From Bacillota bacterium (lineage in GTDB: Bacteria > Bacillota > Limnochordia > DUMW01), in the NCBI GenBank assembly GCA_012839765.1, contig DUMW01000027.1, positions 1,137 to 65,136 on the forward strand: DNA of 64,000 nucleotides. Direction: 5' to 3'. Position 1 is the first letter of the stretch. The number at the start of each line of letters is the position of its first letter. Below are positions 4,158-59,965 of the stretch, piece after piece. A program made the translations under genes and the position numbers. Below the pieces are notes generated by a model. It searched no databases. It was not told where the DNA came from and saw only the letters and a list, made by a program, of their open reading frames with translations.

Positions 4158-5231
4158 GTGACCGCGGGTTTGAAGGAACAGATCATGGCCTATCTGGCTC
4201 AACAGAAGCGCAAACAAATCGAAACAAGGAAGATCGAGGACCATGTGCAGGCGAGCCTGGGTGAAGACTACTGGAAGGCAGGAGGCTATCCTCTCTTTGC
4301 CCGGAAGATAGGGGAGCTGGTGGAGGAGGGCATCCTTGCCCCCATCAAGGCCTGGCAACGGAATGGCCTGAATCCACCCCTATATAACGGCTATCGGATC
4401 CTGAAGCTAAGGGATAAGGGAGACCCTGACCTTACCAGGGAACTGCTTACCCAGTATCATCCCTTGCTCCAGATGCGCGCATATCTCGACCAACCGGACC
4501 AATACCAGGCGGATCGGGTGTATCTGAAGCTCCTTAGTGACTACTTGACCCACAGGGAACCCCTTTCCACGAAGCTCACCGTAAACGAAAGATCCTTTGC
4601 CATCTTCAATGATGAGAAGTTTCTGGCCTCGCCCCGGGGACAGGCCCTCTTGGCCCGGGTGGGTTTGACTTTAGCAGACCTGCATTGTTATCCCACCTAT
4701 GAACCCTTTTTCTATTACCAACGGGGCATCCCAGAGGGGCAGATCAATGTGTTGATCGTGGAAAACAAGGATACCTTTTACTCCCTAAAGTCCCTCCTGC
4801 AAAGGGGCTACTACCGTTGGGATAATCTCGCGGTGGACCTTCTCGTCTACGGAGAGGGCAAGAAGATCCTCCGCAGCCACAGCTACTTCGAGGAATTGGA
4901 TCAACTTCCGGTTCTCCCCACAGAGTTTTTCTACTTCGGTGACCTAGATCCGGTGGGGGTTAACATTTGGCATCGCCTAAGCCAGGTGCGGCCGGTGAAG
5001 CCCTTCGTCTTTTTTTACAGACACCTGTTACAGGACCATTTTTCCCGGGCCCCACAACTACGGACCAGGCAACAAGTGGGAGAGACCTCCCTGCGGGCTT
5101 TCCTAGCCCACTTTGCCCCCAGGGAAGCCCAATTGATCGAGGAGCTTTTCGCCCGCCATTGCTATTTGCCCCAGGAGGGGCTTCATTTCGCCAAGCTACA
5201 AGCCTTGGCCGCGGGGGGAGAGGAAAGATGA
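4158..5231 (+). CDS. jetD: Wadjet JetD / MksG-like Toprim nuclease subunit (DUF2220-like)
   Basis: Toprim signature: conserved Glu in VLIVENKDTF (about residue 202) and DxD in FFYFGDLDPVG (about 262-264). At 357 aa it is compact relative to JetD. Its stop overlaps the next gene's start (ATGA). Confidence 0.65.
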   Translation: MTAGLKEQIMAYLAQQKRKQIETRKIEDHVQASLGEDYWKAGGYPLFARKIGELVEEGILAPIKAWQRNGLNPPLYNGYRILKLRDKGDPDLTRELLTQYHPLLQMRAYLDQPDQYQADRVYLKLLSDYLTHREPLSTKLTVNERSFAIFNDEKFLASPRGQALLARVGLTLADLHCYPTYEPFFYYQRGIPEGQINVLIVENKDTFYSLKSLLQRGYYRWDNLAVDLLVYGEGKKILRSHSYFEELDQLPVLPTEFFYFGDLDPVGVNIWHRLSQVRPVKPFVFFYRHLLQDHFSRAPQLRTRQQVGETSLRAFLAHFAPREAQLIEELFARHCYLPQEGLHFAKLQALAAGGEER

Positions 5232-6787
5232 CCCATTGGCAGGACATTTTCGCAGGCTTTGCCCAGCGTATGAACAATATTGCCGCCTTCGCCCCCCTGT
5301 TACAGCTAGCCCAGAAGACCTCGTACCAAAGGTATTCCCTACCGTCCCTGGGTTTGGCGGTGATGCTATTCATCCTCGAGGATATGCTTCGGAACACCAA
5401 GCAGAGTACCTACGAGAACATCGCTTCGTTCCTTAGGGAGATAATCCTCCGCCACTACCATGAGGACCTTACCCGGGAGGAGGCCCTAGAGCTAACCTAC
5501 TTCCTCGTCAAAGAGGGCCTCATGAATCAGGGACAACCCCATCAATACACCTACCCCGATTTCGAACGGGGGGAAAACCACACCCATAAGTTCCACTTGG
5601 TGGAACTGGCCGAATACGACGTGGGGGAGCGGAAGGTGCTGCTTAAGCTTTCTACCACAGGCCTTGACCTTCTGTTCAAGACCAAGGAGATATACAACGA
5701 ACTGCAAATCTCCATCGCCCAGTTGTACCTGCGGCAACAGATCCAAAAGGGGGTCTTTGACGGGGCCCTACGCACTGTGGAGGAGCTGGCCTTGGCCGTA
5801 CGCACGGAGAAAGAAAGGATCCAGCGGCTTGAGCAGCGAATTATCCAAGACGTGCTGCAGGTGGCCAGGGAACAGGAACTAGAAAAACAACTGGAGCGCA
5901 TCGACAACCAGCTGCAGCGGGAACAGGAGGTTTTCCGGGAACTGACAGAGCTCATCGACCACACCCTATCCCAGTACCAGGGGGGAAAACTGAGCCCCAC
6001 CGAAGAGGCGGGACTCCAGTCCATGATGACCGTACGCAGGCGACTGTTGGATGTCATCTATGAACATGAATCCTTGTTTAAGGACAAGCTCCGGGTCCAT
6101 CAACTGATGCTGGAGGCCATCGAAGCCATGATCCTCACCTCCTTCACCACGAAGGTGAACTTCGAGACGGAGTTTCTACAGCCGGTGGTGACCCAAAACG
6201 CTCCCATCACCGTCCTGAAAGGGATTATCGATCCCGTATTACCAGTAAGGATACGTAAAGCCTTCCATCCGGCCCGGGCCTTTCTGCCCCAGGTATTGCC
6301 CAAAGAAGCGGAAGAAGAGCTCAGCGCACAAGAGCTTTTGGAACTGGATGCCCAGCGGCAAAGGGAAGCGGAAAGCAGGGAACGGGCCCTGTACCAGGAG
6401 CGTCTAAACCGCCTAGAAAGCTATTTATCGCTCCTTTTGGAGCCTTTGCTCCGGCAACGGGAGATCCCCGTAAGCCAGATCCTAGCGAAGCTAGAGCAAA
6501 AGGATCCGGAGAAATACCGGAAGATCACAAGCCAGATGGACTTTTACGCCTGCCTAGTACAACTGCACCAGCTGGGAGTAGTCCCCATCTACAACGAAGC
6601 CCAGGTAGATCTGTTGGTGCTAGACGATCTACCAAAGGTCTTAGTAAAACTGGCCACCACCAATCCTGCCATCCAGGGGCTCGGAGCCTTTGAAGTGCTG
6701 GCCACCGAAGGAATCATCACCCTGCCGGCAGGCTATGTCATGAGCGATTTTCTACTCAGGAGGGCAAGGGAAGATGGAATGGACTAA
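5228..6787 (+). CDS. jetA: Wadjet JetA / MksF-like kleisin-type subunit (DUF3375-like), 519 aa
   Basis: The track ORF 4967..6787 overlaps the upstream gene. The real start is probably ATG 5228 (MTHWQDIFAGF), with SD GGAGAGGAAAG and ATGA stop-start coupling. The central region is long and helical with charged heptads, and the size and operon position fit JetA. Confidence 0.6.
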   Translation: MTHWQDIFAGFAQRMNNIAAFAPLLQLAQKTSYQRYSLPSLGLAVMLFILEDMLRNTKQSTYENIASFLREIILRHYHEDLTREEALELTYFLVKEGLMNQGQPHQYTYPDFERGENHTHKFHLVELAEYDVGERKVLLKLSTTGLDLLFKTKEIYNELQISIAQLYLRQQIQKGVFDGALRTVEELALAVRTEKERIQRLEQRIIQDVLQVAREQELEKQLERIDNQLQREQEVFRELTELIDHTLSQYQGGKLSPTEEAGLQSMMTVRRRLLDVIYEHESLFKDKLRVHQLMLEAIEAMILTSFTTKVNFETEFLQPVVTQNAPITVLKGIIDPVLPVRIRKAFHPARAFLPQVLPKEAEEELSAQELLELDAQRQREAESRERALYQERLNRLESYLSLLLEPLLRQREIPVSQILAKLEQKDPEKYRKITSQMDFYACLVQLHQLGVVPIYNEAQVDLLVLDDLPKVLVKLATTNPAIQGLGAFEVLATEGIITLPAGYVMSDFLLRRAREDGMD

Positions 6788-7529
6788 GGAAGATGTACAA
6801 CTGGCCTTCCGGATCTTCATTGAGCTGTTGGACCGACAGGTGACCGATGAACGGGAGCTGCTTTACGCCTATCAACGGAAAGAAGTCAGGGAGATCCTCG
6901 AAACGGTGATCGAAGCAGAAGCGGGGGTAAAGATCTTCGCCCTCGCAGACCGGCTCTACCTTTCCCCGGGACTAGACAACCGGATCTTCGGCTATACCAA
7001 CGAGGAACTGCGGGAAAAAATGAAGCTCCAGGACAACCAGGAGCTCTACTTGGCGTATTTCACCATCCTATGCCTACTGGCCAAATTCTACAACAGCGAT
7101 GATCAGAGTCTCGCGGCTCGGCAGTTTCTGCCCTTGGAGGAACTGGAGGAGACCATCACCGCCTATCTCCAACGGGTTCGGGAAACAGCCCCGAAACAGG
7201 TGGAAGAGGCCAGCCAAGAGCTACAGCTGAACCTAGCCAGCTGTGCGGAGATCTGGCTGGACATGCCCGCCTTCGACGAATCCCTCAAGCATCCCCGACG
7301 GGGCCGGAACAACCGGATCAGTTTCCTTTTGCGGGTGCTGAGTTTCCTGGAGAACGAGGGATTGGTGCAGATCATCCAAGATGCGGAGGTGCGCCTACTG
7401 CCCAAACTGGAGCACCTCATCCTCCGCTATTACTTCCACAGCCAACGGAAAGATGAGTTGTTAGCGCTCCTTTCCACACCCGAAAGCTTTACCAAGGGCC
7501 TAAGGGGGACAGAAAATGCCGCGCATTAA
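6774..7529 (+). CDS. jetB: Wadjet JetB / MksE-like subunit (DUF4194-like), 251 aa
   Basis: It shows 14-nt overlaps with both neighbours (translational coupling). The size and position match JetB; there are no catalytic motifs. Confidence 0.6.
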   Translation: MEWTKEDVQLAFRIFIELLDRQVTDERELLYAYQRKEVREILETVIEAEAGVKIFALADRLYLSPGLDNRIFGYTNEELREKMKLQDNQELYLAYFTILCLLAKFYNSDDQSLAARQFLPLEELEETITAYLQRVRETAPKQVEEASQELQLNLASCAEIWLDMPAFDESLKHPRRGRNNRISFLLRVLSFLENEGLVQIIQDAEVRLLPKLEHLILRYYFHSQRKDELLALLSTPESFTKGLRGTENAAH

Positions 7530-10500
7530 CCGGATTCGCCTAGGGAACATCATCTACGACCACGGCAAAAAACATATTGGAGACATCTGCTTTAGTCTCG
7601 GAGGACAGGATACGGTCTTTTTGTTGGGCAACGGGGGAGGGAAGACGCTCCTGGCTCAACTGGTCCTGCAGACGATTCTCCCCAACGCCCGGTTGGGCAA
7701 CCGAAAGCTTGCGGACCTGCTTCAATCCCAGCGCTTTACAGGACATGTGGCGGTGGAATGGCGGCTAGACAGTACCGGTAGGGCGGAACAGTATCTTTGT
7801 ACGGGGTTTTGCTTCACCAATGGTCTCACCCCCGAGGAGCCCATCCGCTACTTCAACTATCTGTTCGATTACGAAACCAAGGGACCAAAGAACTACTCCC
7901 TCTTCGGGGAAGAAGATGTAGATGGGCAGCTTTCCATCACCCAACTGCCCTTCACGGTGGTGGATGGGGTACTGGGAATCCGGACACCCATCGGCTACCA
8001 AGAACTGTGGGACTGGCTAGAGGAGCGCAAGGACCAAGGGGTACAACTGTTCCGCCAGCAGCCCAAGGTCTATCAGGACCGTCTACGGGTGTATCAGCTA
8101 TATGCAGAGGAATGGGAAAACATCCAGAAGACCAATGGCACCGAGGGAGGCGTAAGCCGGTTCTTCGAACGGGCCAAGACCACCACTCAGCTTTTGGACC
8201 AGCTACTCATCCCCAGTATGGAGCAGGTGATCTACCGCAGTGAAGAACGAAAAAAAGAACTCCTGGCCGGGTTCATCGAACATCAGAACCTCCTTTTACA
8301 GATCCCCCAAATCAAGCAGAATATCCAGGATTTCAATGTGATCCAAGACGAGGCAGAGGGGCTGGTAGAGGAAGTCAAGAAGCTCCATAACAGAGAAGTC
8401 GAGGCCCAAAGAAAGGCCGAAAACCTCTTCCGCCTGGCCCAAGGAGTTTACCGTCAACAACAGGAAAGCAGTAAGCGATGTGCCCACTTGGAGGAAGACT
8501 TAGGCCAAAAACACCAAACCCTCCGGGAACTCAAATGGCAGGAAGCAAGTTACGAAGTCTTCAAGCAGGAGCAAGAAGTTCAAAGGCTAAGGGAACAACT
8601 AACCCTAGCCCAGGAGGAACTGGCCCGGCGCCAAGACCAACTGGCGAAGGCCCAACAAGAGGAACGAAAACTCCACGCAACAATCCAATACCACCGACGG
8701 CAACGGGCCCGGGAAGAACAGGAATACTATGCCCATCAACTGGAGCTTTTAGATAAAGGGGAACCGGAACTGCAGGAAGAACTAGAAACCACCAGTGGCA
8801 AGGCCCGGTTCGCCTGGGAGAAGAAGAGAGAGGAATTCACGGTAGCCCGCCAAAGGACCAAAGAACAGCTAGTCCAACGGGAAGAAACCCTGCAGGAGTT
8901 GCAGGGTAGAATTCAGACCCAGCGAACCCGTCTCGAGGAACTGATCGACACCATGGGCCGGCTAAAGGGTTGGTTTGAACAATACAAAGCTAAAGAAAAG
9001 CAAATCCTGGTCCTGGTCCCCGACCTGAACCGCCTTACGCCCCAGGACACCCTCCGACAACGGCAAAGGATGCTAGACCAACTGGAGAAACAGACGGAGG
9101 CCTGCCGCACAGAGATCGACAACCTCACCCAGGAAATCCGTCAATGGTGGGAACACAACAGGGAATTGACCGGGAAACTGGCCATCCTGCAAGGACAACT
9201 GACCGGGATCCAAGAAAACCTCGCCACTTTTGGGCGGACCAAAGATCAGTTAGTACAGTTGCTCCATGGGGCGGGGATCTTTATCCGGGATCCCTTTGAA
9301 GAACCGGGACTTTTAGCCCGCGTCCATAGTTTGTGGGAGGAGGCCCAGCGGGAATGGATCGCTGCCCAGGCCAAACTGGCCAGTCTCGAGGAAACCGCGG
9401 CCACCATCACCCACAGCGAATACTTCGTCCCCCACCGGGAGCTGGTAGCCATCCAAGACTACTTGGCCCGACTAGACATCCCTGTCATCCTGGGTAGCCA
9501 GTGGCTCCAAGAGCATTTTCAGGATGAGACGGCCCGGGAGGAGTTTTTGAAACAAGAGCCCCTCCTTCCCTTTAGCATCGTCATCGAAGCCGGGCAAGTA
9601 AAGACCATCGGTCGGTACCTGCGCCAGATGCGGGATCTTTCCTGTGAGTTTCCCATCATCCTTTGGGTGAAGGGCGCACCCCAAAGGACTACGTCCCAAG
9701 GGGAGCTTGTATCCATCGGACCTAGGGAACAGTACGTTTTCCTTCCGGAAAGCAGGTCCCTATATACTTCTCCCCAGGCCTTCCAGGAATTCAAGGAAAG
9801 GCTCCAGGAGAGGATTAACGAACAAAGGAACCTGGTGCAAGGCCTCCGGGATAGGGAAGAGGAAAGACGCTATCTGAAAGAACAAACCCAACACTTCTTC
9901 CGAACCTATACCAAGGAGCAAATCCTCCAGTGGCAGCAACAAGCGGAGGAACTTACCAAGCAGTGTGCCGAAAGGGAGAAGGAAATAGGAGACACCAAAG
10001 CCCGGTGTAACGAGCTAGAAGAAAGACAACGTTTGACCCAAGAGAATCTTAGGGACCTAGTGGAAAAACAACACCGCCTGGCAAGCCTGGTGGCAGATCT
10101 CGAGGAGTTTGTGCAGTGGTATCACCAGTACCAAGAGCACCAGGCCACCAAAGCCAAGGTGGAAAGGGAGATCGCCCACCTCCAACAACAGCGGACCCTG
10201 CTCGAAGAGGCCACCTCCCGCATCCAAGGGGAAATCTCCGCGCAAAGGGTGCAGTTAGCTAGCCTAGATAAAGCTTTGGCGGATCACCAAAGGGAACTGG
10301 TGGATTTGGCTTTGGATAGAACAAGCCCCCTGGCTACCGACGAGGATTACGCCACCTGCCGGGCCCACTTAGAAGCGGTAAAACTCCGCTTAGCCCAAAA
10401 ACAGGTAGATCGCCAGAACCTGGAAAAACTCCTGGCCAAGGCCAATGCAGAATACGCGGAGACCCAGGCCCAGATCCAGGCTAGCGGCATCAGCGAAGAG

Positions 10501-11928
10501 ATCCTTGCCAGCGAGGCCCGACCCGTAAGCAGTGAAGAACTAGCCCAACAGATCAGGACACGCCAGGAACTAGAAAGGGACTGCCGCGACCAGGAAAAGA
10601 AGGTGGACTCCTTGGAATCCACTCTGAAAGGGCTAGAATTCATCAGGGATCGGTTGGCCGCGGAGGTGGAAAGGGAGTATCAAAGGCCCCCCTACCTGAC
10701 CTTCGACCCGGCCACGGCCCAGGCCCAGTATCAATACCTGAGGGAAAGGTTGGCCCAGGTGCAGGGGGAAATCCAAGACATCCAAAAGGCCATCGACGAA
10801 GAACGGGCCTGGCAGCAACAACTGGCCATTGCCGGTGACTTGCTGCGGGAAAAGGTGGCCTCTCTAGACAAACCCGCTTCCACCGATATCCCATTGGATT
10901 GGCGCCACTACGGCACCGAGCCTTTGAAAGCCATTCAGGCGGCCATCCGGGAACAGGAGGAAGCCGCAGACCGCGTGCGGCAGCAACAACTGGAGGTGAG
11001 GGAACGTTTTCGAAAATACTATTTCCGGCTCCAACAGACCAACAATCCCAAGGTGAACCAGTTTCTGCGGGATGTTCAGGCCCTGATGGACGAGGATCGG
11101 ATCTACAACTTCGATTTCGTGGAAACCCAGTTTCTGCGCATCTTTGAAGCCCTCGACTACTACCGTCGGCAGGCGGAGGAGACGCTGCACCAGTGTGAGA
11201 CCAGTTTCCACCAGCTGGTGCAACTGAGTCTTCGCCGGGCCCGGGAGGTCCACCGGAGCATCATGGAACTGCCGAAGAATTCCCGGGTAATCCTCTATGA
11301 CCAGCCCGTTCAGGTGATCCGCATCGAGTGGCCCATGCAAGAGGAGGCCCAGGCCCAACAGAGTATGGAACAGTACCTGGAGAAGCTGCTCAGAGATCTA
11401 CAAGTCTGGAAGGCCCAGGGCATCGACGACGATGAGCTGAACCGGCGCATGGAGGATATGCTTTCCACTAGAAATTTGATCAACGTCTTAGCGCCCATCG
11501 AGACCTGTCGGGTCACGGTGTATAAACCCCGGAAGGAGTCCATCGCCAGGGTGGAGCGTCCCGAATACTTCCCCTGGGATGAGGTAACCCGCTGGTCTGG
11601 CGGGGAGGAATACAGCGTATACATCACCATGTTCATGATCATGCTCACCCATATCCGCCGCCAGTCCGAAGGGTTGCTCCACTCTTGGAAGGTCCTCTTG
11701 GCCGATAATCCCTTCGGCGTGGCTTCGTCGGATCACATCCTGGACACCATGTTCCAGGTGGCCCGCGGCAACCGGATTCAGCTTTTGTGCCTTACGGCCC
11801 ACCGGGAGGCCAGCATCCTCAAGCATTTCCCCACGGTCTACAGTCTCCAGCTGCGGCCAGCTTACGGAAAGGAAACCCTGACCGCCGAGCAAATGGAAAA
11901 GGGATTCTATGCAGAGATTAGTACTTAG
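7516..11928 (+). CDS. jetC: Wadjet JetC / MksB-like SMC-family ATPase (1470 aa)
   Basis: N-terminal Walker A GNGGGKT after MPRINRIRLGNI. About 1000 aa of Q/E/R/L-rich coiled-coil sequence follows. C-terminal head: signature WSGGEE, Walker-B-like VLLADN, D-loop ASSD, H-loop LLCLTAHRE. Confidence 0.85.
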   Translation: MPRINRIRLGNIIYDHGKKHIGDICFSLGGQDTVFLLGNGGGKTLLAQLVLQTILPNARLGNRKLADLLQSQRFTGHVAVEWRLDSTGRAEQYLCTGFCFTNGLTPEEPIRYFNYLFDYETKGPKNYSLFGEEDVDGQLSITQLPFTVVDGVLGIRTPIGYQELWDWLEERKDQGVQLFRQQPKVYQDRLRVYQLYAEEWENIQKTNGTEGGVSRFFERAKTTTQLLDQLLIPSMEQVIYRSEERKKELLAGFIEHQNLLLQIPQIKQNIQDFNVIQDEAEGLVEEVKKLHNREVEAQRKAENLFRLAQGVYRQQQESSKRCAHLEEDLGQKHQTLRELKWQEASYEVFKQEQEVQRLREQLTLAQEELARRQDQLAKAQQEERKLHATIQYHRRQRAREEQEYYAHQLELLDKGEPELQEELETTSGKARFAWEKKREEFTVARQRTKEQLVQREETLQELQGRIQTQRTRLEELIDTMGRLKGWFEQYKAKEKQILVLVPDLNRLTPQDTLRQRQRMLDQLEKQTEACRTEIDNLTQEIRQWWEHNRELTGKLAILQGQLTGIQENLATFGRTKDQLVQLLHGAGIFIRDPFEEPGLLARVHSLWEEAQREWIAAQAKLASLEETAATITHSEYFVPHRELVAIQDYLARLDIPVILGSQWLQEHFQDETAREEFLKQEPLLPFSIVIEAGQVKTIGRYLRQMRDLSCEFPIILWVKGAPQRTTSQGELVSIGPREQYVFLPESRSLYTSPQAFQEFKERLQERINEQRNLVQGLRDREEERRYLKEQTQHFFRTYTKEQILQWQQQAEELTKQCAEREKEIGDTKARCNELEERQRLTQENLRDLVEKQHRLASLVADLEEFVQWYHQYQEHQATKAKVEREIAHLQQQRTLLEEATSRIQGEISAQRVQLASLDKALADHQRELVDLALDRTSPLATDEDYATCRAHLEAVKLRLAQKQVDRQNLEKLLAKANAEYAETQAQIQASGISEEILASEARPVSSEELAQQIRTRQELERDCRDQEKKVDSLESTLKGLEFIRDRLAAEVEREYQRPPYLTFDPATAQAQYQYLRERLAQVQGEIQDIQKAIDEERAWQQQLAIAGDLLREKVASLDKPASTDIPLDWRHYGTEPLKAIQAAIREQEEAADRVRQQQLEVRERFRKYYFRLQQTNNPKVNQFLRDVQALMDEDRIYNFDFVETQFLRIFEALDYYRRQAEETLHQCETSFHQLVQLSLRRAREVHRSIMELPKNSRVILYDQPVQVIRIEWPMQEEAQAQQSMEQYLEKLLRDLQVWKAQGIDDDELNRRMEDMLSTRNLINVLAPIETCRVTVYKPRKESIARVERPEYFPWDEVTRWSGGEEYSVYITMFMIMLTHIRRQSEGLLHSWKVLLADNPFGVASSDHILDTMFQVARGNRIQLLCLTAHREASILKHFPTVYSLQLRPAYGKETLTAEQMEKGFYAEIST

Positions 11929-12016: not shown

Positions 12017-13099
12017 ATGAGCAAATTCAATGGCCTGGGAACAGACTTACATAACCTGTTCCTGTTGTCGTCGGCGAAGACCCGCTCTATCAGTGCAGAG
12101 AATTTTACCGGCGCCAAGGGGGAGGGAGGGAAGGCCACGGAAGGGACGGGCGCCCACTTCGCCCGGGAGCTGGGGCCAGGGTGGAAGATCTCACCTTCGG
12201 TATTCGTGGAACCAGGAACCACCTTCACCCTCGCGGACATCACCGGCCCCGGCGCGATCCAGCAGATCTGGATGACCTGCCACGCCAAGTTTTGGCGGAG
12301 CCTGGTCTTGCGCTTCTACTGGGACGGCGAGGAAGAACCCTCCGTGGAGGTACCCTACGGGGACTTCTTCTGCAATGGCTGGTGTCAACTGGCTTTGGTG
12401 GGTTCCCTCCCTGTGGCCGCCAACCCCAACGGCGGCATGAACAGCTACTGGGAGATGCCCTTTAGGAAATCCGCCCGGATCACCATTGAGAATGTGGGTT
12501 TTGAGAACGCGGTCCTCTATTACCAGATCAACTACTGCCTGACGGAAGTACCCGATAACGCCGCCTATTTCCACGCCCAGTGGCGCCGTAACAACCCGCT
12601 GCCCTACAAAGAAGTGCACACCATCCTGTCCGATGTGAAGGGTCAAGGGCACTACGTGGGCACCTACATGGCTGTGGGGGTCACCAACAACGGCTGGTGG
12701 GGAGAAGGGGAGATCAAGTTCTACCTGGACGGGGACAAAGACTATCCCACCATCTGCGGCACCGGTACCGAAGACTATTTCGGCGGCGCCTGGAACTGGG
12801 AGTTTCCGCCGGGGCAATACTGCACTTATTCCACCCCTTACCTGGGCCTTTGCCAGGTAATTAAGCCCGATGGCCTTTACCGAAGTCAGCAGCGTTTCGG
12901 CATGTACCGCTGGCATGTGAGGGATCCCATCCGCTTCGAAGAGGATCTCAAGGTCACCATCCAGGCTTTAGGCTGGCGGAGTGGCTCCCGGTACTTGCCG
13001 CTTCAGTACGATATTGCGACCACCGCCTTTTGGTATCAGACAGAACCGCACCATCCCTTCCCCACGCTACCCTCCAGGGACGAACTGGAAGTCATCTAG
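12017..13099 (+). CDS. DUF2961 / GH172-like protein (difructose-dianhydride hydrolase family candidate)
   Basis: SISAENFTGAKGEGGKATEG and a WDGEEEPSVEVPYGDFF block recall DUF2961. ATG start with SD AAAGGAGTGA. Confidence 0.55.
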   Translation: MSKFNGLGTDLHNLFLLSSAKTRSISAENFTGAKGEGGKATEGTGAHFARELGPGWKISPSVFVEPGTTFTLADITGPGAIQQIWMTCHAKFWRSLVLRFYWDGEEEPSVEVPYGDFFCNGWCQLALVGSLPVAANPNGGMNSYWEMPFRKSARITIENVGFENAVLYYQINYCLTEVPDNAAYFHAQWRRNNPLPYKEVHTILSDVKGQGHYVGTYMAVGVTNNGWWGEGEIKFYLDGDKDYPTICGTGTEDYFGGAWNWEFPPGQYCTYSTPYLGLCQVIKPDGLYRSQQRFGMYRWHVRDPIRFEEDLKVTIQALGWRSGSRYLPLQYDIATTAFWYQTEPHHPFPTLPSRDELEVI

Positions 13100-13285
13100 G
13101 GCTCGGGGGAGCCGCAGGCTCCCCCTGGCCTTCGGGCATATCCACCAATATTTCATCGTTTACTACAAAAAATAATGTTCTAAAAGCAGGAGTTTGTCCG
13201 GTCTAGAAGAATTAGATCAACATTACGTGAAAAAAAATAGGACCGATGGGTCTTAACACATAGTTCAACCAGAGGAGGAAATACT

Positions 13286-15151
13286 GTGACGGAGCGACTT
13301 TTGCCGTTGAAGCTGCAACCGCTACCCATGGTGGAGATCAAGCCCCAAGGCTGGCTAAAGGACCAGTTAACCATCCAGAGTAAGGGTCTAAGCGGACATA
13401 TCGAGGAGGTTTGGGAAGACCTAGGCCCGGACAACATGTGGCTGGGCGGTACCCGGGACGGTTGGGAACGGGGTCCCTACTACGTAGATGGCCTGTTACC
13501 CTTAGCCTATCTCTTGGAGGATCCCGCGCTTAAAGCCAAAGCCCACAAATGGATACAGGCCTTCTTAAACTACCAAGATGAATCAGGCTGGATCGGACCG
13601 ATAAAGGCCAATGACCGAGGCACCTATCCCCGGGATCCCTGGCCGATTTTCGTCGTCTTCAAGGTCTTTGTTCAGTACTACGAGGCCACCAAGGAAGACC
13701 GGGTGCTGGAGGTCATGCTGAAGTTCTGCCGGACCCTACATCAGCAGCTGGAGTATATGCCCCTGCGCTCGTGGGCGATGTTCCGCTGGGCCGATATGGC
13801 TTGGTGCGTCCAGTGGCTGTGGGAAAAGACCCAGGAAGACTGGTTGCTGGATCTGAATAGGAAGCTAGCAGAACAAGGTTACAACTGGCCGGATCACTTC
13901 ACCAACTTCACCTACCAACGGCCTGCCACAGAGTCTAAGTTCGAGACCCACGTGGTGAATAACGCCATGGGTATCAAGACCGGCGGGGTCTGGTACCGCC
14001 AGTCCCAAAGGGAAGCAGATCGACAGGCAGCTTACCGTGCCATCGAAAACTTGGATAAATACCACGGACAAGTAACTGGGCTTTTCACCGGTGACGAGCA
14101 CTTCGCCGGTAAAGATCCTTCCCGGGGCACCGAGCTTTGCGCCGTGGTGGAGTATATGTTCTCCCTGGAGGTGCTCATGGCCATCCTGGCCGATGTGCGC
14201 CTGGCGGACCGCTTAGAGCTCATCGCCTACAACGCGCTCCCCGCCACCTTTAGCCCTGATATGTGGACCCACCAGTACGACCAGCAGGCCAACCAGGTAC
14301 TGTGCAGCATCGTGGATCGGGGCTGGACCAATGGGGTGGAGGCCAATATCTTCGGCCTGGAACCCAACTTCGGTTGCTGCGCCGCCAATATGCACCAGGG
14401 TTGGCCGAAATTGGCGACCCACACCTGGATGAAGACCCCCGACGGGGGACTGGCCACCATCGTCTACGCACCCAGCACCGTGACCACCAACATCGGCGGA
14501 CAGAAGGTCTCCCTCACCCAAGACACCCAATATCCCTTCCGGGAGACGGTGACCATCCGGGTAGAAACAGAGCAACCGATCCGGTTCCCCTTACATCTGC
14601 GGATCCCCGGGTGGGCCAAGGGGGCTTCCGTCACCTTGCCCGACGGTACCCAACCGGAGATAACCTGTGGGGAGTACCTGATCGTCGACCGCACCTGGAA
14701 CGGGGGAGAGGAAGTAACCTTGCATTTCCCCATGGCGATCACCGTAAAAAGAGGCTTCAACGGTTCCGTGGCCATCCAGCGGGGTCCCTTGGTATACTCG
14801 TTGAAAATCGGGGACCAGTGGGTACTGGTGGACGGCACCGATCCTTACGGTGACTACGAAGTCCATCCCACCACCCCGTGGAACTACGGCCTGTTGGTAG
14901 ATCTGGAAAGCCCCGACAGTAGTTTTGAAGTACGGCTAAAACCGGTGGGCGACATGCCTTTCTCCCCGGAAGGAGCGCCGGTGGAACTGGTGGCCCAAGG
15001 GAAACGGATCCCCCAGTGGCAGCTGGTCAACGGCTCCGCAGGGCCCATTCCCCAAAGTCCCGTAAGTTCCGATGCTCCCACTGAAACGATCATCCTCATC
15101 CCCTATGGGTGCACCAACTTGCGGATCACCGAGTTTCCGCTGGTAAAGTAA
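13286..15151 (+). CDS. Glycoside hydrolase family 127-like (beta-L-arabinofuranosidase/DUF1680 type)
   Basis: N-terminal block LKLQPLPMVEIKPQGWLKDQL...DGLLPLAYLLEDP. Adjacent cysteines in EPNFGCCAANMHQGW are consistent with the GH127 Zn/Cys site. C-terminal LIPYGCTNLRITEFP. GTG start with SD GAGGAGGA. Confidence 0.65.
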   Translation: MTERLLPLKLQPLPMVEIKPQGWLKDQLTIQSKGLSGHIEEVWEDLGPDNMWLGGTRDGWERGPYYVDGLLPLAYLLEDPALKAKAHKWIQAFLNYQDESGWIGPIKANDRGTYPRDPWPIFVVFKVFVQYYEATKEDRVLEVMLKFCRTLHQQLEYMPLRSWAMFRWADMAWCVQWLWEKTQEDWLLDLNRKLAEQGYNWPDHFTNFTYQRPATESKFETHVVNNAMGIKTGGVWYRQSQREADRQAAYRAIENLDKYHGQVTGLFTGDEHFAGKDPSRGTELCAVVEYMFSLEVLMAILADVRLADRLELIAYNALPATFSPDMWTHQYDQQANQVLCSIVDRGWTNGVEANIFGLEPNFGCCAANMHQGWPKLATHTWMKTPDGGLATIVYAPSTVTTNIGGQKVSLTQDTQYPFRETVTIRVETEQPIRFPLHLRIPGWAKGASVTLPDGTQPEITCGEYLIVDRTWNGGEEVTLHFPMAITVKRGFNGSVAIQRGPLVYSLKIGDQWVLVDGTDPYGDYEVHPTTPWNYGLLVDLESPDSSFEVRLKPVGDMPFSPEGAPVELVAQGKRIPQWQLVNGSAGPIPQSPVSSDAPTETIILIPYGCTNLRITEFPLVK

Positions 15152-15169
15152 GCCCTTCCGGCGGATAGA

Positions 15170-15225
15170 AGAGGGGCCCGGTCACTGCCGAACAAGGCAC
15201 TGGCCGGGCCTTTTTTTTACATAAT
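15170..15225 (+). terminator. Terminator after the GH127-like gene
   Basis: GGCCCGG...CCGGGCC GC stem followed by T8 (ccgggccTTTTTTTTac). A second hairpin (CCCACCGG...CCGGTGGG) followed by TTTTCG on the minus strand probably terminates the convergent minus-strand gene. Confidence 0.6.
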
Positions 15226-15290
15226 CTGCGGACCATACGAAAAGGCCCACCGGAGCAATCAGACATCCGGTGGGCAGCCCGTGATTACCC

Positions 15291-17897
15291 CTACAGGGTC
15301 AAGACCACGGGGTCGTCTCCGGGGGTAAAGTCAGGGGCGTGAAGGTATAGGTTACGGTCCACATAGACCGCCAGACCCGGTAGATACTCTCCCGGGATCC
15401 CCGGCGCTTGCCAGGTGATCTTTAGTTCCTGCCCCCGATAGGGAATATTCTCCATCGAGAAATGCTCAAGTCCCAAGGGCAAGGGATCGATGGTAATCTT
15501 TCCTTCCTCGGTAATCATCAGCCCCACCACATGTCGCACGTACAGATCCACCCACCAGGAATGCATGTAGTCCCGGAAAATGCTCAAGGGGGCACCGGTC
15601 AAGGGATTGTACCGCTCGTAGAAGTCCGCCCGGGGAGTCAGATGGTTGCGCACCGCCCGGTGGAACAAAGTGGCCGCCTGGGGAAGCAAGGTCCGATCCA
15701 GCTCCTTGGCCGCGGTGGCAAAGGCCTCGATGACGTGGCTGGTGGCCGCGGGCCACGCGGGTCCCTGCCAGAAACTGTTGGGATCAAAGTCTGAGTCCTC
15801 CTTGGACAGAGCAGGAACAGGATGGGGCAACCAGAAACGTTCTGGGTTCAACAAGTGCTCCCTGAACACCCGCAATTGCTCGGCGGTACCGGCTCCGGCG
15901 AAGAAGGGATAAAAGGTGGTGATGGTGATCGTACGGGCCCACTCTTGACGACGGGGATCCAGATCCCTGTAACATCCCGCCTTGTCATCCCAAAGCAGTG
16001 AGTTCAAAGCCGCCGCGGCCTTCTGGGCATACTGGGCGAAGTAGGTGGCATCTTCGTCTTCACCGAGGGCTGCGGCCAGGGCCGCCACCGCCTGGAGGTT
16101 GATATATGCGTAGCTGGTGGCATCGATGGCCTCGTAGGGCAGCTCCGGATCCGGCCAGCGGTAAAGGTCATCCATCCCGGTCTCCAGCTGATGCTCCACC
16201 GCAAAAAGCCCATTGCCGTCCGTATCCCGAGCCCGGATCCACCACCGCAGGTTCATGGCTAAGGCGGGGTAGACCCGCCGCACCAAATCAAGGTCATGGT
16301 GAATCTGATAATGGCGCCACACCGCATAGGGCAGCAAAGACAGACCCGTGCGGGATGCATGGTGCAAGGGCACCAGATTGGTTCCCGGCGTAGTGTACCA
16401 GGGGAACCGGCCGTCCTCGTAAATGGCATGACACATATTAGCCAAATGGCCATATCCCACCTCGGCATCCCGGGCCCAGTTCAGATCCAAAGCCATGAAG
16501 GGGGCACTATAGCAGCAATAGGTTTGGTAGGCTTGCCTGCCCTCCAAGACCACCGGGTACTGCAAGTAGCCTAGATCGCCCCCAGCGGTGGAAAACCGTA
16601 GCAAGAACCATCGAAAGGCATAAAGCTCATCCAAACCAGGATCCGAGGAAGAAAAGCGGGGAATCTCTTCCTGATAAAACCGCTCCCAAACCTGGCGGTT
16701 TGCGCCAATGGGATCCTCTTCCGCTAAGACCCGGGATAGGTTCGCCACCGCCGTTTCCCGTTGGGGATGAACAGCACAGGCCACCTTAATCGTCCGGTAC
16801 TCGCCCGGCTTCAAGGAAGCTTCTAAAACAAACCGATAGGTACCCGCGGGGGAGGTCTTTACCTCCTTTAGTTCTTCGGAACTACCGATGGCCACCGACA
16901 AACCCTCGGCCAAAATCCCACCAAAAGCCCTGGGATCCTGCAACACCACGATCCCCTCCAGGTATGTGGAAGACTTGCTTCCCCCAGGGGTCTCCCGCCA
17001 ATCGTGGGCGTTGCGTAGATCACCCCTTACGTTAAGCTTCCAGTCCAGAGGAACCTCTGCGGGGTTGTAAAGGTGGATCATCGCCACCAGCACATCATCC
17101 TCGGTGACACACACTTGCCGAAGCTCCTGGACCACACCAAGTAAGACTTCTTGTTCTGTGGCGTTATGGATCTCCACGGCCTCAATATTCACGTTGGGCT
17201 GGGGACTGGGTGTGGGATTTGGGCTCAGCAATGCATGATCGGGCCACCAGTTGACGGTGTAACCGTTAAAGGCCGTACAGATTTCACCCAGTTCGTAGGT
17301 GGCATAAAACACTTTGCTCTGGGTCCCTGTATACAGGGCTACGTTCCTCCCGCCACCCACACTGTTTTTGTCGGCCCGGTTGCCCACCAGGTCCAAAAGG
17401 GGAGACGGGGGCACCGCCAATCCCGGCAGCTGGGACCTTTCCGGAACCTGATCCGTCACCATAAGCCGTATCACGTGCCTACCTGCGGGTAGCTCCGGCA
17501 GTAAGATGCGGCTGCGGGCAAAGTGTCCCGGCTCCTCTCCCCAGCCACCGGTCTGCCCGTAGGGCAACAGTCCCACTTCCACACCGTCCACCGTCACCTG
17601 AAAATAGCCACCCCCAGCAAAAGCCCGGGCATAGCTGACCGTCAACACAGGGGAGCTCCATGCTTCCTCCAGAGAAAAGGCATACTCCACAAAGTGCCCG
17701 ATAGCACTGCCAAATTCCCTACCCAGCACCTCACCGGTAATGGCACCGGCCTTGAAGTCTCGACCTTGGGACCCTAGTTGTGTAACATAAGAAGGGCCCG
17801 GCAGGATAATCCGCGAGGACTGGGCGAGGCAGCGGGCCACTGGACACAAGAAAAGCACCAGCGGCAACAGCGCCAGCAATAGTGGGTATTTCATCAT
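15291..17897 (-). CDS. Secreted (alpha/alpha)6-barrel glycoside hydrolase (GH63/MGH-like), 868 aa
   Basis: Signal peptide MMKYPLLLALLPLVLFLCPVARCLA. The C-terminal half carries six-hairpin glycosidase blocks (WQGPAWPAATSHVIEAF, YRWPDPELPYEAIDATSYAYINL). Start ATGATG with SD AAAGGAGCGG. Confidence 0.55.
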   Translation of the reverse strand: MMKYPLLLALLPLVLFLCPVARCLAQSSRIILPGPSYVTQLGSQGRDFKAGAITGEVLGREFGSAIGHFVEYAFSLEEAWSSPVLTVSYARAFAGGGYFQVTVDGVEVGLLPYGQTGGWGEEPGHFARSRILLPELPAGRHVIRLMVTDQVPERSQLPGLAVPPSPLLDLVGNRADKNSVGGGRNVALYTGTQSKVFYATYELGEICTAFNGYTVNWWPDHALLSPNPTPSPQPNVNIEAVEIHNATEQEVLLGVVQELRQVCVTEDDVLVAMIHLYNPAEVPLDWKLNVRGDLRNAHDWRETPGGSKSSTYLEGIVVLQDPRAFGGILAEGLSVAIGSSEELKEVKTSPAGTYRFVLEASLKPGEYRTIKVACAVHPQRETAVANLSRVLAEEDPIGANRQVWERFYQEEIPRFSSSDPGLDELYAFRWFLLRFSTAGGDLGYLQYPVVLEGRQAYQTYCCYSAPFMALDLNWARDAEVGYGHLANMCHAIYEDGRFPWYTTPGTNLVPLHHASRTGLSLLPYAVWRHYQIHHDLDLVRRVYPALAMNLRWWIRARDTDGNGLFAVEHQLETGMDDLYRWPDPELPYEAIDATSYAYINLQAVAALAAALGEDEDATYFAQYAQKAAAALNSLLWDDKAGCYRDLDPRRQEWARTITITTFYPFFAGAGTAEQLRVFREHLLNPERFWLPHPVPALSKEDSDFDPNSFWQGPAWPAATSHVIEAFATAAKELDRTLLPQAATLFHRAVRNHLTPRADFYERYNPLTGAPLSIFRDYMHSWWVDLYVRHVVGLMITEEGKITIDPLPLGLEHFSMENIPYRGQELKITWQAPGIPGEYLPGLAVYVDRNLYLHAPDFTPGDDPVVLTL

Positions 17898-51399: not shown

Positions 51400-52761
51400 T
51401 CACAGCTTTTCCTGGATAGTCATCCGCTGGCGCAAGGCTTTACTGCCTGCGGGATGATGCCAGATCACAAGACTCTCCACGATCTCCCCACTGGTATAGC
51501 CGATCGCTCCGGCAATGGCCGGATGAACCGAAAGTACTAGGCTAGTGAGCAATGCCACCACGGCCGCGATCAGATTCGCGGTCTTCGCCCGACCGATAAT
51601 CCCCGTACTACCATTCTGCATGATAATCCCCCAGCAAAACTCCCGCCAGGCACAGGCAATGGGGAACAGGGCGAAGACCCCAAGGACACCCCGCGCAGTC
51701 TTGGTCACCGTCGGGGATACACCAATAACAGACCCAAAGACCCAGTTTCCCAGGGGCGTGAGGGCCAAAGAAAGCATCACCAAAGTCAGCACAAGGCCCA
51801 CCAGCAAACAGAACCGGCGCACCACACCCTCCTCATCGGCACCATACACAAACAGACACTGGTGAAGGGAACGGGCGGGACCAACGATGACAGTCATCAG
51901 ACTCAAGGCCACGGCATAACCAGCCAAGTCTTCCGCCGGTGCCAAGGAAAACCTGGCAATCCCCGCCTGGATCACCGAGGGGATCAAGGCCGCGATAAGG
52001 CTCATCACCCCGAGAGGAATAAAGAAATTCCGTACCATCCCCATGGTTAGCTCCCCGTGGTCCTTGGAGGGAAGGTGAGTCACTCCCCGGGAAAGCGAAC
52101 CGAAGGACCAAACAAAGTAACTAAGAATGATTAACAGCTCAAAACCGATGCCGGCGACCCATGCGATACTGCCGGCCTCAATGCCAGTGAAGACCTGACC
52201 TGCCACCACCCAAGAAAGGAAGAAGAACAAGACCACCACCCGCATCGCAGTGGCAACGGCCATGATTCCCGTCCGTACCAAACCAACAGCCATTCCTTGA
52301 TAGGCATTCCTCAAAGTTTCTACAAAGGGGAGGAAAGCGGCAATCCGCAGGGCCCGATAGGCAAGATCCAACTGATCAGGATCGTCGATCTTAAACACAT
52401 ATTGCAGCACAAGCCCCCCCAGGGGTGTATAGCCCAAAAGGCTCAGCAGGAAAAAGACAACAGAGATGACCTGCCAGTTAAACCTGCGAACAAGTCGATA
52501 GCTTTTCTGATCGTCCACAAAGGCTAAGAAGACCTGGGTAGACATCAGTTCCGGTGCCTTGATAACATTCACCATCGACTTGACGATACCAAAGACGGCA
52601 ATGTTAACCTCTGGATTGGGCAAACGAGCCAAAGCGCCATCTACGATGGAATGGGTTGAAGCGATCAGAAATGGTGTGGCCCCCAAAGGGAGGAAAAAGC
52701 GCAACAACTTCCAGAAAGTCACTTTAGTTCCCAATGGTCTATCCCTTTCTAACCCGCGCAT
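51400..52761 (-). CDS. Polytopic membrane protein, MATE/MOP-superfamily-like (paralogue of 30224..31513)
   Basis: See shared blocks listed for 30224..31513. About 12 TM helices. Confidence 0.55.
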   Translation of the reverse strand: MRGLERDRPLGTKVTFWKLLRFFLPLGATPFLIASTHSIVDGALARLPNPEVNIAVFGIVKSMVNVIKAPELMSTQVFLAFVDDQKSYRLVRRFNWQVISVVFFLLSLLGYTPLGGLVLQYVFKIDDPDQLDLAYRALRIAAFLPFVETLRNAYQGMAVGLVRTGIMAVATAMRVVVLFFFLSWVVAGQVFTGIEAGSIAWVAGIGFELLIILSYFVWSFGSLSRGVTHLPSKDHGELTMGMVRNFFIPLGVMSLIAALIPSVIQAGIARFSLAPAEDLAGYAVALSLMTVIVGPARSLHQCLFVYGADEEGVVRRFCLLVGLVLTLVMLSLALTPLGNWVFGSVIGVSPTVTKTARGVLGVFALFPIACAWREFCWGIIMQNGSTGIIGRAKTANLIAAVVALLTSLVLSVHPAIAGAIGYTSGEIVESLVIWHHPAGSKALRQRMTIQEKL

Positions 52762-53005
52762 CGCCTAAAACCGTACAGACTCATCTCTATGCACGGACTA
52801 AGTAGAAATGTTAGGCTGTTCCTAATGGTTGATGTGGTCGTGGCATAGTGGAGTGAGTAAGTCACAGAAAACATCCCGAGGTCGTGTAGCAATTAGGAAG
52901 CGCCTTTCTCTGTAGTGTAGTCTACCCCTTGGTTCTTGTCAAGAATAGACAAAAAGGTGAGAATAGGTCTTGTGTATATCTAATGGTATGTGGTAGAATA
53001 TCTCA

Positions 53006-53135
53006 TGTTAATAACTGAATGTCATGTTACTGTATGTAACTTCGGAAGCGATGAACCCTGATTGTATGTGGTCACTTTGGATCAGGGTGAGCTAGTAGTG
53101 AAACCGGCCGAGGTATCGGCCGGTTTGTTTTTTTT
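53006..53135 (+). ncRNA. Putative small structured RNA / cis-leader with its own intrinsic terminator (orphan terminator on + strand)
   Basis: Promoter-like TTGTGT(52970)-18nt-TAGAAT(52994) with an upstream TG. Hairpin CCCTGAT...ATCAGGG (53056-53087). Terminator AAACCGGCCGA-ggta-TCGGCCGGTTT+GTTTTTTTT (53101-53135). No + strand CDS lies upstream (the neighbour is minus-strand); the pilin gene starts 85 nt downstream. Confidence 0.4.
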
Positions 53136-53219
53136 GTGGAGAACGATGACGAAGGGAGGGAAGCACAACTCTTAGCCTCTGCCGTTAATACCGTAATCTA
53201 TTCGAGGGGGGAATAATCT

Positions 53220-53657
53220 ATGTTTAAATTATTTAGAAAGAAAAATGAAGAAGGATTTACCATTGCAGAATTGTTAATCGTTATTGTAGTGTTGGGAATC
53301 CTCGCCGCCATTGCCATCCCTAGTTTCACTGGTCTCCAGAAAAGGGCCCGCAGGGCAGAACTAGAGAGCAATGGAAGGGCCATTGTGCTGGCTTTGGAGA
53401 TGTATAAGATTGAAACAGGAAAGTATCCCGACGTTCAAACGCAAGAGAATAATATTAACGAGCTAAAAGTTCCCCTTCAGGGTTATCTGACCAATGTTGA
53501 ACAGATCCTGCAAACAGTCCCCAGTGGAACCTACAAGAAAGATACACCAGAAGGGGGGTATACACTTACCTTGGGCGATGGAGATGATACTGAGGTTACT
53601 TTCGTGAACGGCGTACTTCAAACGGAATCTGAAACGGAATCTAAACCGGAACCGTAA
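53220..53657 (+). CDS. Type IV pilin / pseudopilin (prepilin with class III leader)
   Basis: MFKLFRKKNEEG|FTIAELLIVIVVLGILAAIAIP. This is the prepilin peptidase cleavage motif (G/F) with Glu+5 and a hydrophobic helix. SD GAGGGGGGAA. No pilus assembly genes are nearby. Confidence 0.85.
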   Translation: MFKLFRKKNEEGFTIAELLIVIVVLGILAAIAIPSFTGLQKRARRAELESNGRAIVLALEMYKIETGKYPDVQTQENNINELKVPLQGYLTNVEQILQTVPSGTYKKDTPEGGYTLTLGDGDDTEVTFVNGVLQTESETESKPEP

Positions 53658-53719
53658 TCACGGGGCGTACAGGGAGATACGACGGTTAGGTAATCGACCT
53701 GACGTTGCAGAGTCGGATT

Positions 53720-53757
53720 GGGTGATACTGGATAGTACACCAGTATCACCCTTTTCT
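53720..53757 (+). terminator. Rho-independent terminator after the pilin gene
   Basis: GGGTGATACTGG-atagtaca-CCAGTATCACCC followed by TTTTCT. Confidence 0.8.
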
Positions 53758-54152
53758 ATATTAATCGGGAGTAAGGAACGCGTACACTTTCATATAGGAT
53801 CTAGAACTGACTGAATTCCCGGAAATACCAATATCTGAATCCACAGTGCTTTTTTCTCTGGTCTGGGTTGCAAGGCTGTCTCTCGTAGCTTGGCGTGCTG
53901 AAACCGACTTGATTTCAGGCTTTATTGAGGGCATCAAGAGGAACACTTCCTGCCAAGACGTGGGAAACCGCATCCTAAAAGATTCTCTCAGTGGGATCAT
54001 TTCTTCTTGCAATCTTCCCGCACCGAAACTGCCAGAACAGACCCGCGACATCGCTTCTTTTAGGATAACGTTCGGTAACTTCTTCCGGTTACGGCAAGGC
54101 ATTTTCTCATCAATAGTCCTTATACCAAGCGAATCGAGTCCAACACGTAATA

Positions 54153-55007
54153 CTACATCGACCGCTTGCGAAACTGTAAGGGGGTAAGGCCTTCGTATTT
54201 CCGGAACATCCTGATGAAATGACTTGCGCTGTTGAAGCCCACCCGCTGGGCGATTTCCTCCACCGATAGTCTAGTGTTCTGTAAAAGGGTTTTTCCCTGG
54301 GTAAGACGTTCGTTCAGCAAGTATTCATAGGGACTGAACCCCGTATGCTTCTTGAAGATACGAGATAGGTGATACTTACTCATCCCCACACTCTGAGCTA
54401 ATGCATCAAGATTAAGGGGACGATCGTATCTTTCCTCGATCTGCCGGATCACCCTGTCGACCGGAGAGGGGAGGGTATTGTTACCGCTTCCCTCATAGCT
54501 TCTCAGCAAGAGCTCCGTAAGAATCTGCACAATAAGACAAGAGGCTTGAACGTCGAGACGCGGATCCTTCTGCTTCATCATGGTATGGATGTCCTTCATG
54601 TTTGCGAGAATTGAACTGGTTGCCGGTACATGAAACACCGGCCCTTGGATCTCATAGAGCCGCTCCACATAGCCCGCACTTTCACTGCCATTAAAGTGAA
54701 TCCAGGTAATCTCCCAAAGATCCTGTGGGTCAGTATAATACAGTTGGTAATTCATACAGTTAATCAAGAATCCCATACCCGGGGTCAGGGTATAGGACTT
54801 CTCCCGGTATTCCAAGTAGCCCTTTCCATTCAGAGTGTAAACCAGCAACATACTGTTCAAATCCTGACGTTCAGTGCGATACCGTTCAGTGGCCCACAAA
54901 TGTCCGCCAGATTGCACGTAATAGAAGAGAGAACGGGCCATTCCCGCAGGCGTGTGATGAATAGACCAAGACCTACTATCCCAACCTAGGGCTGTCACCA
55001 TCTGCAA
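54153..55007 (-). CDS. AraC/XylS family transcriptional regulator (cupin + HTH)
   Basis: C-terminal AraC HTH: LAQSVGMSKYHLSRIFKKHTGFSPYEYLLNERLTQGKTLL...IAQRVGFNSASHFIRMFRKYEGLTP. Confidence 0.85.
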   Translation of the reverse strand: MQMVTALGWDSRSWSIHHTPAGMARSLFYYVQSGGHLWATERYRTERQDLNSMLLVYTLNGKGYLEYREKSYTLTPGMGFLINCMNYQLYYTDPQDLWEITWIHFNGSESAGYVERLYEIQGPVFHVPATSSILANMKDIHTMMKQKDPRLDVQASCLIVQILTELLLRSYEGSGNNTLPSPVDRVIRQIEERYDRPLNLDALAQSVGMSKYHLSRIFKKHTGFSPYEYLLNERLTQGKTLLQNTRLSVEEIAQRVGFNSASHFIRMFRKYEGLTPLQFRKRSM

Positions 55008-55125
55008 CCCCCAGCAAGATCTGTCGATTTTTTAGCAACTTATCCTAATGATACCCATTCTGCAACGTAGTATAATCATAACATGATCATGCTATTTTGC
55101 CCAGACTAACCAAAGGAGGCTCTTT

Positions 55126-56938: not shown

Positions 56939-56950
56939 AAAGGTCCAAAG

Positions 56951-57403: not shown

Positions 57404-57412
57404 TTTGCAACG

Positions 57413-59963: not shown

Positions 59964-59965
59964 AG

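Follow-up and report, generated by a model that had tools for sequence, protein, structure and literature searches.

An invariant asparagine at the position of the Walker B glutamate in the JetC ATPase of type III Wadjet systems

In the ATPases of the ABC and SMC families, the glutamate that follows the Walker B aspartate polarises the lytic water, and replacing it by glutamine is the routine way to make 'hydrolysis-dead' mutants of SMC proteins. The Wadjet anti-plasmid systems, of which there are three types, contain an SMC-like ATPase, JetC. In E. coli JetC the E1022Q exchange abolishes ATPase activity, plasmid cleavage and restriction alike (bioRxiv 2022.10.04.510915). The type II complex has a steady-state ATPase of about 100 ATP per complex per minute (bioRxiv 2025.03.10.642339), and the authors of the type II study expect extrusion-cleavage in all three types. 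An operon of B. thuringiensis protects B. subtilis against transformation by plasmids, as do the operons of types I and II (bioRxiv 2022.10.04.510915, citing Doron et al. 2018), and is drawn as a type III example in the later paper (bioRxiv 2025.03.10.642339). The locus described here lies in a 64,000-nucleotide stretch of a Bacillota genome (assembly GCA_012839765.1, contig DUMW01000027.1, positions 1,137 to 65,136), the whole of which is called the window and to which all coordinates refer. Judged from its sequence, the locus (4158-11928) is a complete type III Wadjet anti-plasmid system in the order JetD-JetA-JetB-JetC. Its JetC has an asparagine at the position of the catalytic glutamate.

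The jetC gene (7516-11928, forward strand) encodes a 1470-residue SMC/MukB-like ATPase. The initial annotation, made from the DNA letters, had called the protein JetC-like, and this is borne out by the PADLOC model of the type III protein, JetC3 (PDLC00585, E = 3.4e-134), which aligns residues 1-1464 with profile positions 1-1447 of 1457, as well as by Foldseek and hhalign. The ATPase head is built from the N- and C-terminal halves of the chain, joined via a long coiled coil (Foldseek and profile search); the middle part of about 1000 residues matches coiled-coil proteins only in a profile search of the PDB. The Walker A motif, G-N-G-G-G-K-T with K43, is encoded at 7627-7647. The other motifs lie near the 3' end of the 1470-codon reading frame, where the translation is RWSGGEEYSVYITMFMIMLTHIRRQSEGLLHSWKVLLADNPFGVASSDHILDTMFQVARGNRIQLLCLTAHRE. 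Direct reading places W-S-G-G-E-E at residues 1360-1365 (11593-11610), of which W-S-G-G-E (11593-11607, with S1361) is the ABC signature, and the Walker B strand with the residues next to it, V-L-L-A-D-N-P-F, at 11692-11715. In the sequence K-V-L-L-A-D-N-P-F-G, the aspartate D1397 is encoded by GAT (11704-11706) and is followed, at the position of the catalytic glutamate, by Asn1398. The asparagine codon is AAT (11707-11709) and not AAC as first reported, which leaves the amino acid unchanged. The translation of the reading frame contains no D-E dipeptide between the signature motif and the L-T-A-H stretch, so that the asparagine and the missing D-E both stand as originally read. Further downstream, the A-S-S-D-H segment leads to His1407 (11734-11736), with which the helix that follows the D-loop region begins, and the strand Q-L-L-C-L-T-A-H (11779-11802) begins with Q1422 and ends, within L-L-C-L-T-A-H-R-E, with H1429 (11800-11802) at the H-loop position.

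The asparagine is a property of the whole family. It was found in all 47 homologues with a C-terminus from a first protein search, which share the pattern hhhhD-N-P-F-G/A (h, hydrophobic). A profile of the C-terminal region was then scanned with HMMER against 1.84 billion cluster representatives and gave 1695 matches with E <= 1e-3, 560 of them with E <= 1e-30. The best 150 matches combined with the first homologue set comprise 191 distinct proteins; among the 187 that have the C-terminus, 184 have D-N-P-F, two D-N-L-F and one D-K-P-F, making Asn 186/187. The lone D-K-P-F occurs in a 439-residue fragment that passes into corrupted sequence some dozens of residues further on. In an alignment of 127 full-length cluster representatives, with identities to the window JetC down to 17-20% over the full length, Asn1398 is as constant as Lys43, Ser1361 and Asp1397 (each 127/127), and the column never holds Q, S, T, D or E in the JetC3 sequences examined. 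Asn39, Gly40, Phe1400 and Gln1422 are likewise present in 127 of 127 and Pro1399 in 125. Asp1397 is the sole invariant acidic residue of the C-terminal head.

As a guard against circularity, genomes were also scanned, one per species, using only the N-terminal Walker A peptide as the query, which is blind to the C-terminus. Relatives of JetC3 are encoded in at least 553 species-level genomes. Among the best 80 loci, D-N-P-F-G is present in 67/67 complete genes, and in 73 of the 80 JetD, JetA and JetB are encoded upstream on the same strand in the order D-A-B-C. Across the JetC3 genes the asparagine is encoded 56 times by AAT and 19 times by AAC; both codons are in use, and selection therefore acts on the residue. 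A Glu codon is two nucleotide steps away from an Asn codon, with Asp as a plausible intermediate. A JetC3 copy on a plasmid of the B. cereus group likewise has D-N-P-F. Thus D-N-P-F is an invariant hallmark of type III JetC and not an anomaly of one gene, and the suggestion of the initial annotation that homologues be inspected for D-N is answered by the full-length alignment and the genomic genes alike. At five of the loci (L016, L017, L031, L067 and L073) the reading frame with the Walker A peptide has merely 119-1000 residues (fewer than 1300) despite full flanking DNA; jetC may be interrupted or pseudogenised there, or the assemblies may be in error. One of the five is from Psychrobacillus sp. 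L4, a strain whose type III Wadjet is mentioned in a paper.

Two other residues singled out at first are less constant. D1406 had been taken for the D-loop aspartate and H1429 for the H-loop histidine, and both are present in the window protein; in the family alignment the former is Asp in just 9 of 127 sequences and the latter His in 44, with Leu in 72. His1407 is His in 124 and Tyr in three. A conserved glutamine is not found at the place expected for the Q-loop in the 127-sequence alignment. The conserved residues of the N-terminal half are Arg63, Glu81, Glu199, Asn207 and Glu210.

The position of the asparagine in the fold was examined by AlphaFold2 modelling of the two halves of the head separately, the C-terminal half as residues 1262-1470 with a 24-sequence alignment. 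The predicted local distance difference test score (pLDDT) is 83 for the C-terminal half and 84 for the N-terminal half. In the C-terminal model a helix begins directly after Ser1361, a beta-strand ends exactly at D1397, and an eight-residue loop, NPFGVASS, leads to a helix at about His1407 and then to the strand IQLLCL. The modelled order is the canonical one of signature, Walker B, D-loop and H-loop strand, in agreement with the order first proposed. When the C-terminal model was compared with the PDB by Foldseek, it matched JetC of P. aeruginosa (8DK3) and of E. coli (9QXU, 9QXX, 8Q72) and type II JetC of N. vireti (9QE0), followed by SMC and Rad50 heads. The N-terminal model matched 9QE0, the N-terminal domain of MukB (1QHL) and MukBEF (7NYW). 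Of the canonical features of such a head, JetC3 has the Walker A motif, the Ser-Gly-Gly of the signature, the Walker B hhhhD and the head fold, and lacks the glutamate directly after the Walker B aspartate and the D-loop aspartate.

Profile comparison gives the same register. The N-terminal head aligns with that of MukB by hhalign with a probability of 94.6%. The C-terminal profile aligns with MukB-like heads with a probability of 3-4%, and in this alignment the motifs are in register: S-G-G-E stands opposite S-T-G-E, D1397 opposite the Walker B Asp, N1398 opposite the Glu of L-F-L-D-E-A, and Q-L-I-C-L-T opposite Q-L-I-I-A-A-P. The D-loop Asp of MukB falls opposite S1405. The head alignment called for at the outset therefore places N1398 opposite the catalytic glutamate of MukB, in agreement with the Foldseek fold, at a low hhalign probability. 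Sequence searches reach less far. A PDB search with the full JetC protein gave no match, and one with a full-length profile gave mainly coiled-coil proteins and a weak N-terminal match to the type II JetC 9QE0; HMMER profiles of the heads found in the PDB Walker A matches to ABC transporters alone and no JetC or MukB chain. No solved structure of any type III Wadjet component was found by these sequence and profile searches of the PDB. A protein search with the N-terminal head profile returned JetC3 fragments only and no distant relatives, and when the N-terminal head was aligned by hhalign with the N-terminus of B. subtilis Smc (an approximate query), the Walker A region alone was aligned.

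The reading favoured here, judged to be about evenly balanced between right and wrong, is that JetC3 would still turn over ATP by means of a re-wired catalytic centre in which D-N-P-F is ancestral and strictly kept. The replacement of D-E by D-N-P-F where the Walker B strand ends would be the ancestral state of the entire JetC3 family. The Walker A lysine, the Walker B aspartate and the signature serine are intact, and therefore the site should still bind ATP-Mg and close the two heads. Asn1398 may hold the attacking water or the gamma-phosphate through hydrogen bonding, and another invariant residue would then abstract the proton or stabilise the transition state, Glu210 being the best candidate and His1407 the second. 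Compared with type I JetC, turnover would probably be slower or under tighter control by DNA or the partner subunits. The retention of the long coiled coil, of all the partner subunits and of the residues for ATP binding and engagement suggests the pattern of a functional centre. The strict invariance of the asparagine, together with the restriction of plasmids by the B. thuringiensis operon, favours a re-wired working site over a dead one; persisting hydrolysis and a substitute residue would be the steps that this reading adds to the identity of the operon, the motif positions, the invariance and the fold.

The candidate carboxylate belongs to a short loop, Asn207-x-x-Glu210-Gly-Gly (8134-8151), which lies some 30 residues ahead of the coiled coil, before the helix leading into it. 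Asn207 is present in 127 and Glu210 in 126 of the 127 sequences. In the hhalign alignment the loop is set opposite P-E-N-S-G-V of MukB, and we take it to be the equivalent of the S-Q-G-K-V Q-loop of Smc, from the spacing and the following Gly-hydrophobic pattern. That Glu210 might be a relocated carboxylate near the attacking water is plausible from the position of the loop. A clean swap, in which the Q-loop and Walker B would have exchanged Glu and Asn, is not proposed, given that the MukB-like JetC of Burkholderia combines a glutamate near this position with a normal D-E. Stated more broadly, JetC3 might work without a Walker B glutamate in one of two ways, through a relocated carboxylate (Glu210, helped by Asn1398 and His1407) or by cleaving plasmids with little or no ATP turnover; this proposal is offered tentatively, as somewhat short of an even chance.

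Several points weigh against a working site of this kind. Asparagine or glutamine directly after the Walker B aspartate is typical of slow or non-catalytic ABC sites. The assignment of Glu210 to the Q-loop position, a candidate assignment, comes from one hhalign alignment of moderate local confidence, and the helices around it in the isolated N-terminal model have a pLDDT of only 65-82. The Burkholderia protein just mentioned has its glutamate near the position of Glu210 in spite of its D-E. D-N was read only in B. cereus-group relatives of the B. thuringiensis JetC that was tested, and the authors of the type II study call Wadjet-III largely uncharacterized.

The foremost of the other explanations, which is considered possible and rather doubtful, takes JetC3 to be a switch for ATP binding and head engagement with very slow or no hydrolysis. 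The asparagine would be 'EQ-like', and the complex would form a long-lived clamp that undergoes few or single turnovers and no processive extrusion. The non-catalytic sites of PDR-type ABC transporters bear an asparagine at this position, and neither the D-loop aspartate nor the H-loop histidine is a JetC3 family feature. The engineered E-to-Q exchange kills ATPase and restriction in type I JetC, and the natural non-Glu residues of the defence ATPase LmuB are read as a sign of slow hydrolysis (PMC10586767, PMC12663957). However, JetC3 is presumably a homodimer, with two equally deviant sites and thus without a canonical one that could drive the cycle. JetC3 has kept its long coiled coil as well as its kleisin, KITE and JetD partners; the B. 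thuringiensis operon that is drawn as type III acts against plasmids as types I and II do; and relaxed selection on a disabled position would not predict the strict invariance of the asparagine.

Instead of a residue of the same head, the catalytic group might be supplied in trans by JetA, JetB, JetD or the opposite JetC head, with hydrolysis confined to certain assembly or DNA-bound states. The pointers to it are indirect: the near-invariant His1407 lies just past the D-loop region, a part of ABC dimers that extends to the site on the other side, and the operon partners are nearly always found together (at 73 of the 80 loci). To our knowledge a catalytic residue in trans has no precedent among SMC complexes, and this arrangement is regarded as improbable. 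Far less probable still is a mis-assigned motif, with LLADN as a look-alike and the true Walker B or catalytic glutamate elsewhere. The low probability of the hhalign alignment of the C-terminal half and the failure of the HMMER head profiles to match any JetC or MukB chain in the PDB would allow it; against it stand the model, in which the strand with D1397 at its end follows the signature helix and precedes the next helix and strand, as is canonical, the JetC, SMC and Rad50 heads matched by the C-terminal half-domain, and the fact that no acidic residue of the C-terminal head other than D1397 is invariant, with no D-E from the signature to the C-terminal strands.

That the asparagine stems from faulty sequencing or assembly, or from pseudogene decay in one genome, is left a negligible probability and is excluded because a near-identical JetC from an independent assembly (P0001) has the same LLADNPFG and every homologue examined shares the motif, and the four genes of the operon are intact, with frames that overlap at each junction. 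The initial annotation had proposed re-sequencing as a way in which the codon might turn into one for glutamate, which does not apply to a hallmark of type III JetC. What it had observed is confirmed, and its interpretation, a slow or non-hydrolysing head or a different catalytic arrangement, is partly supported. The P0001 protein is listed as 100% identical to the window JetC and differs from it by one Gln/Glu exchange at about 11170 (residue ~1218), where it has ...AQAQESMEQ... and the window has ...AQAQQSMEQ....

The remaining genes of the operon are on the forward strand and precede jetC. The first, jetD (4158-5231), encodes the Toprim nuclease subunit and matches PADLOC JetD3 (E = 4e-94) and Pfam JetD_C (E = 5e-7). 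Its GTG start is taken from the list of open reading frames and may not be the true start; by eye, the Toprim-type glutamate in IVENKD and the GDLDP (DLD) motif are intact. The kleisin-like subunit is encoded by jetA (5228-6787), which matches PADLOC JetA3 over its full length (E = 7e-136), and the KITE-like subunit, a DUF6063 protein (Pfam, E = 5e-54), by jetB (6774-7529; PADLOC JetB3, E = 3e-80). The stop codon of jetD and the start codon of jetA overlap as ATGA. The longest jetA reading frame, with a TTG start at 4967, would share 265 nucleotides with jetD in a different frame; the profile match and the ATGA overlap identify the ATG at 5228 as the true start, and the TTG as an over-extension. 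Automatic gene callers may over-extend jetA in the same way (4967-5231).

The operon is flanked by genes of ordinary metabolism, glycoside hydrolases and spore photoproduct lyase, with a G+C content like its own, and the locus looks chromosomal. Directly 3' of jetC (12017-17897) is a group of genes for the use of carbohydrates. It encodes a DUF2961 protein and a GH127-like beta-L-arabinofuranosidase, and on the minus strand there is an MGH1-like/GH63-type hydrolase; neither a recombinase nor any other mobile-element feature was seen in this segment at the jetC-side edge of the operon. In the final 12 kb of the window (52000-64000) the G+C content falls from ~0.55-0.58 to 0.46-0.51, and this part may be foreign or differently expressed. 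The nearest JetC homologues are from Limnochordia and other Bacillota. A type III operon is also found on the 564-kb megaplasmid CP126687.1 of Bacillus bombysepticus (187094-203909), annotated as DUF2220, hypothetical, DUF6063 and a hypothetical protein of 1519 residues; an anti-plasmid system is there itself borne on a plasmid. Its neighbours, a GIY-YIG nuclease gene on one side and an AAA ATPase and helicase pair on the other, give the region the look of a defence island.

The locus is an ordinary further member of the catalogued Wadjet type III, and the deviation of the site belongs to the whole type. The D-N site of Wadjet-III JetC was not found described in the searchable literature, where prior notice in a supplement or in an ABC classification is possible. 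Most public copies of JetC3 are labelled 'hypothetical protein', and the family is at present recognisable only via the PADLOC defence profiles: no Pfam-A or NCBIfam family model scored above cut-off on the heads of the three proteins searched (the window JetC, P0032 and L002:4302-8858), and NCBIfam gave only sub-threshold coiled-coil matches to SMC models. A natural asparagine strictly conserved in a whole sister type, of which a presumed member restricts plasmids, offers a ready way to ask if SMC motors need the Walker B glutamate or if its chemistry can be redistributed within the head, and it cautions that a missing glutamate alone does not imply an inactive ATPase. If the proposals above are true, an SMC branch present in at least 553 species-level genomes would do without the glutamate deemed indispensable in SMC, Rad50, MukB and JetC. 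A relocated carboxylate (Glu210 with Asn1398 and His1407) would then be novel among the catalytic arrangements of ABC-type ATPases, while plasmid cleavage with little or no turnover would mean that DNA sensing by SMC complexes need not depend on processive loop extrusion.

In its composition the window operon is a typical type III Wadjet: the subunits match all four PADLOC type III models, the gene order is D-A-B-C and JetB is a DUF6063 protein. The window JetC is about 20-25% identical to the JetC3 proteins of the Bacillus type, and its host resembles the Limnochordia among the Bacillota. In type I the gene order is A-B-C-D. Type I JetC (E. coli GF4-3 and P. aeruginosa PA14; 8Q72, 9QXU, 8DK3) has the same head fold as JetC3, at a similarity below detection by HMMER. 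Types I and III have the same partners, a kleisin, a KITE protein and a Toprim nuclease, and are expected to share the extrusion-cleavage logic. Type I JetC has the catalytic glutamate, E1022, whereas JetC3 has the asparagine. The comparison with D-E is based on the published E1022Q mutant of type I and on four MukB-like sequences, all four of which have L-F-L-D-E-A.

MukB and the MukB-like JetC proteins share with JetC3 a homologous N-terminal head and an invariant glutamine in the strand before the H-loop, with no conserved histidine after it; at the H-loop position MukB has Q-L-I-I-A-A-P, without His. They differ in the Walker B motif, D-E against D-N, and in the D-loop, where the Asp of MukB (A-R-L-D) is replaced by Ser or Ala in JetC3. 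One MukB-like system is on a Burkholderia pyrrocinia plasmid (NZ_CP091309.1, 68456-87274), where an operon for MukF-like, MukE and MukB proteins is directly followed by a DUF2220 (JetD-like) gene and adjoins SAVED-domain and WYL-domain genes and an IS21 element. It is Wadjet-like, has a MukB-type SMC with the canonical L-F-L-D-E-A, and gives weak matches to PADLOC JetC2 and JetD1.

The Lamassu protein LmuB resembles JetC3 in being a coiled-coil ABC defence ATPase that naturally lacks the Walker B glutamate. Its Walker B motif is hhhhDD in the long forms and hhhhD[Q/S/T/E] in the short forms, and it is thought to hydrolyse ATP slowly yet to need hydrolysis (PMC10586767, PMC12663957). The position is variable in LmuB and strictly Asn in JetC3, and the fixed asparagine speaks for a particular chemical function and against simple loss. 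The two systems also differ in that Lamassu senses DNA ends, acts by abortive infection and has short coiled coils, whereas Wadjet is a loop-extruding, plasmid-cleaving complex. The deviant sites of asymmetric ABC transporters such as Pdr5 and CFTR have a non-acidic residue in place of the catalytic glutamate as well as a degenerate H-loop and signature, and one canonical site remains in the heterodimer. In contrast, a JetC3 homodimer would hold two identical deviant sites, and the signature serine of JetC3 is fully conserved.

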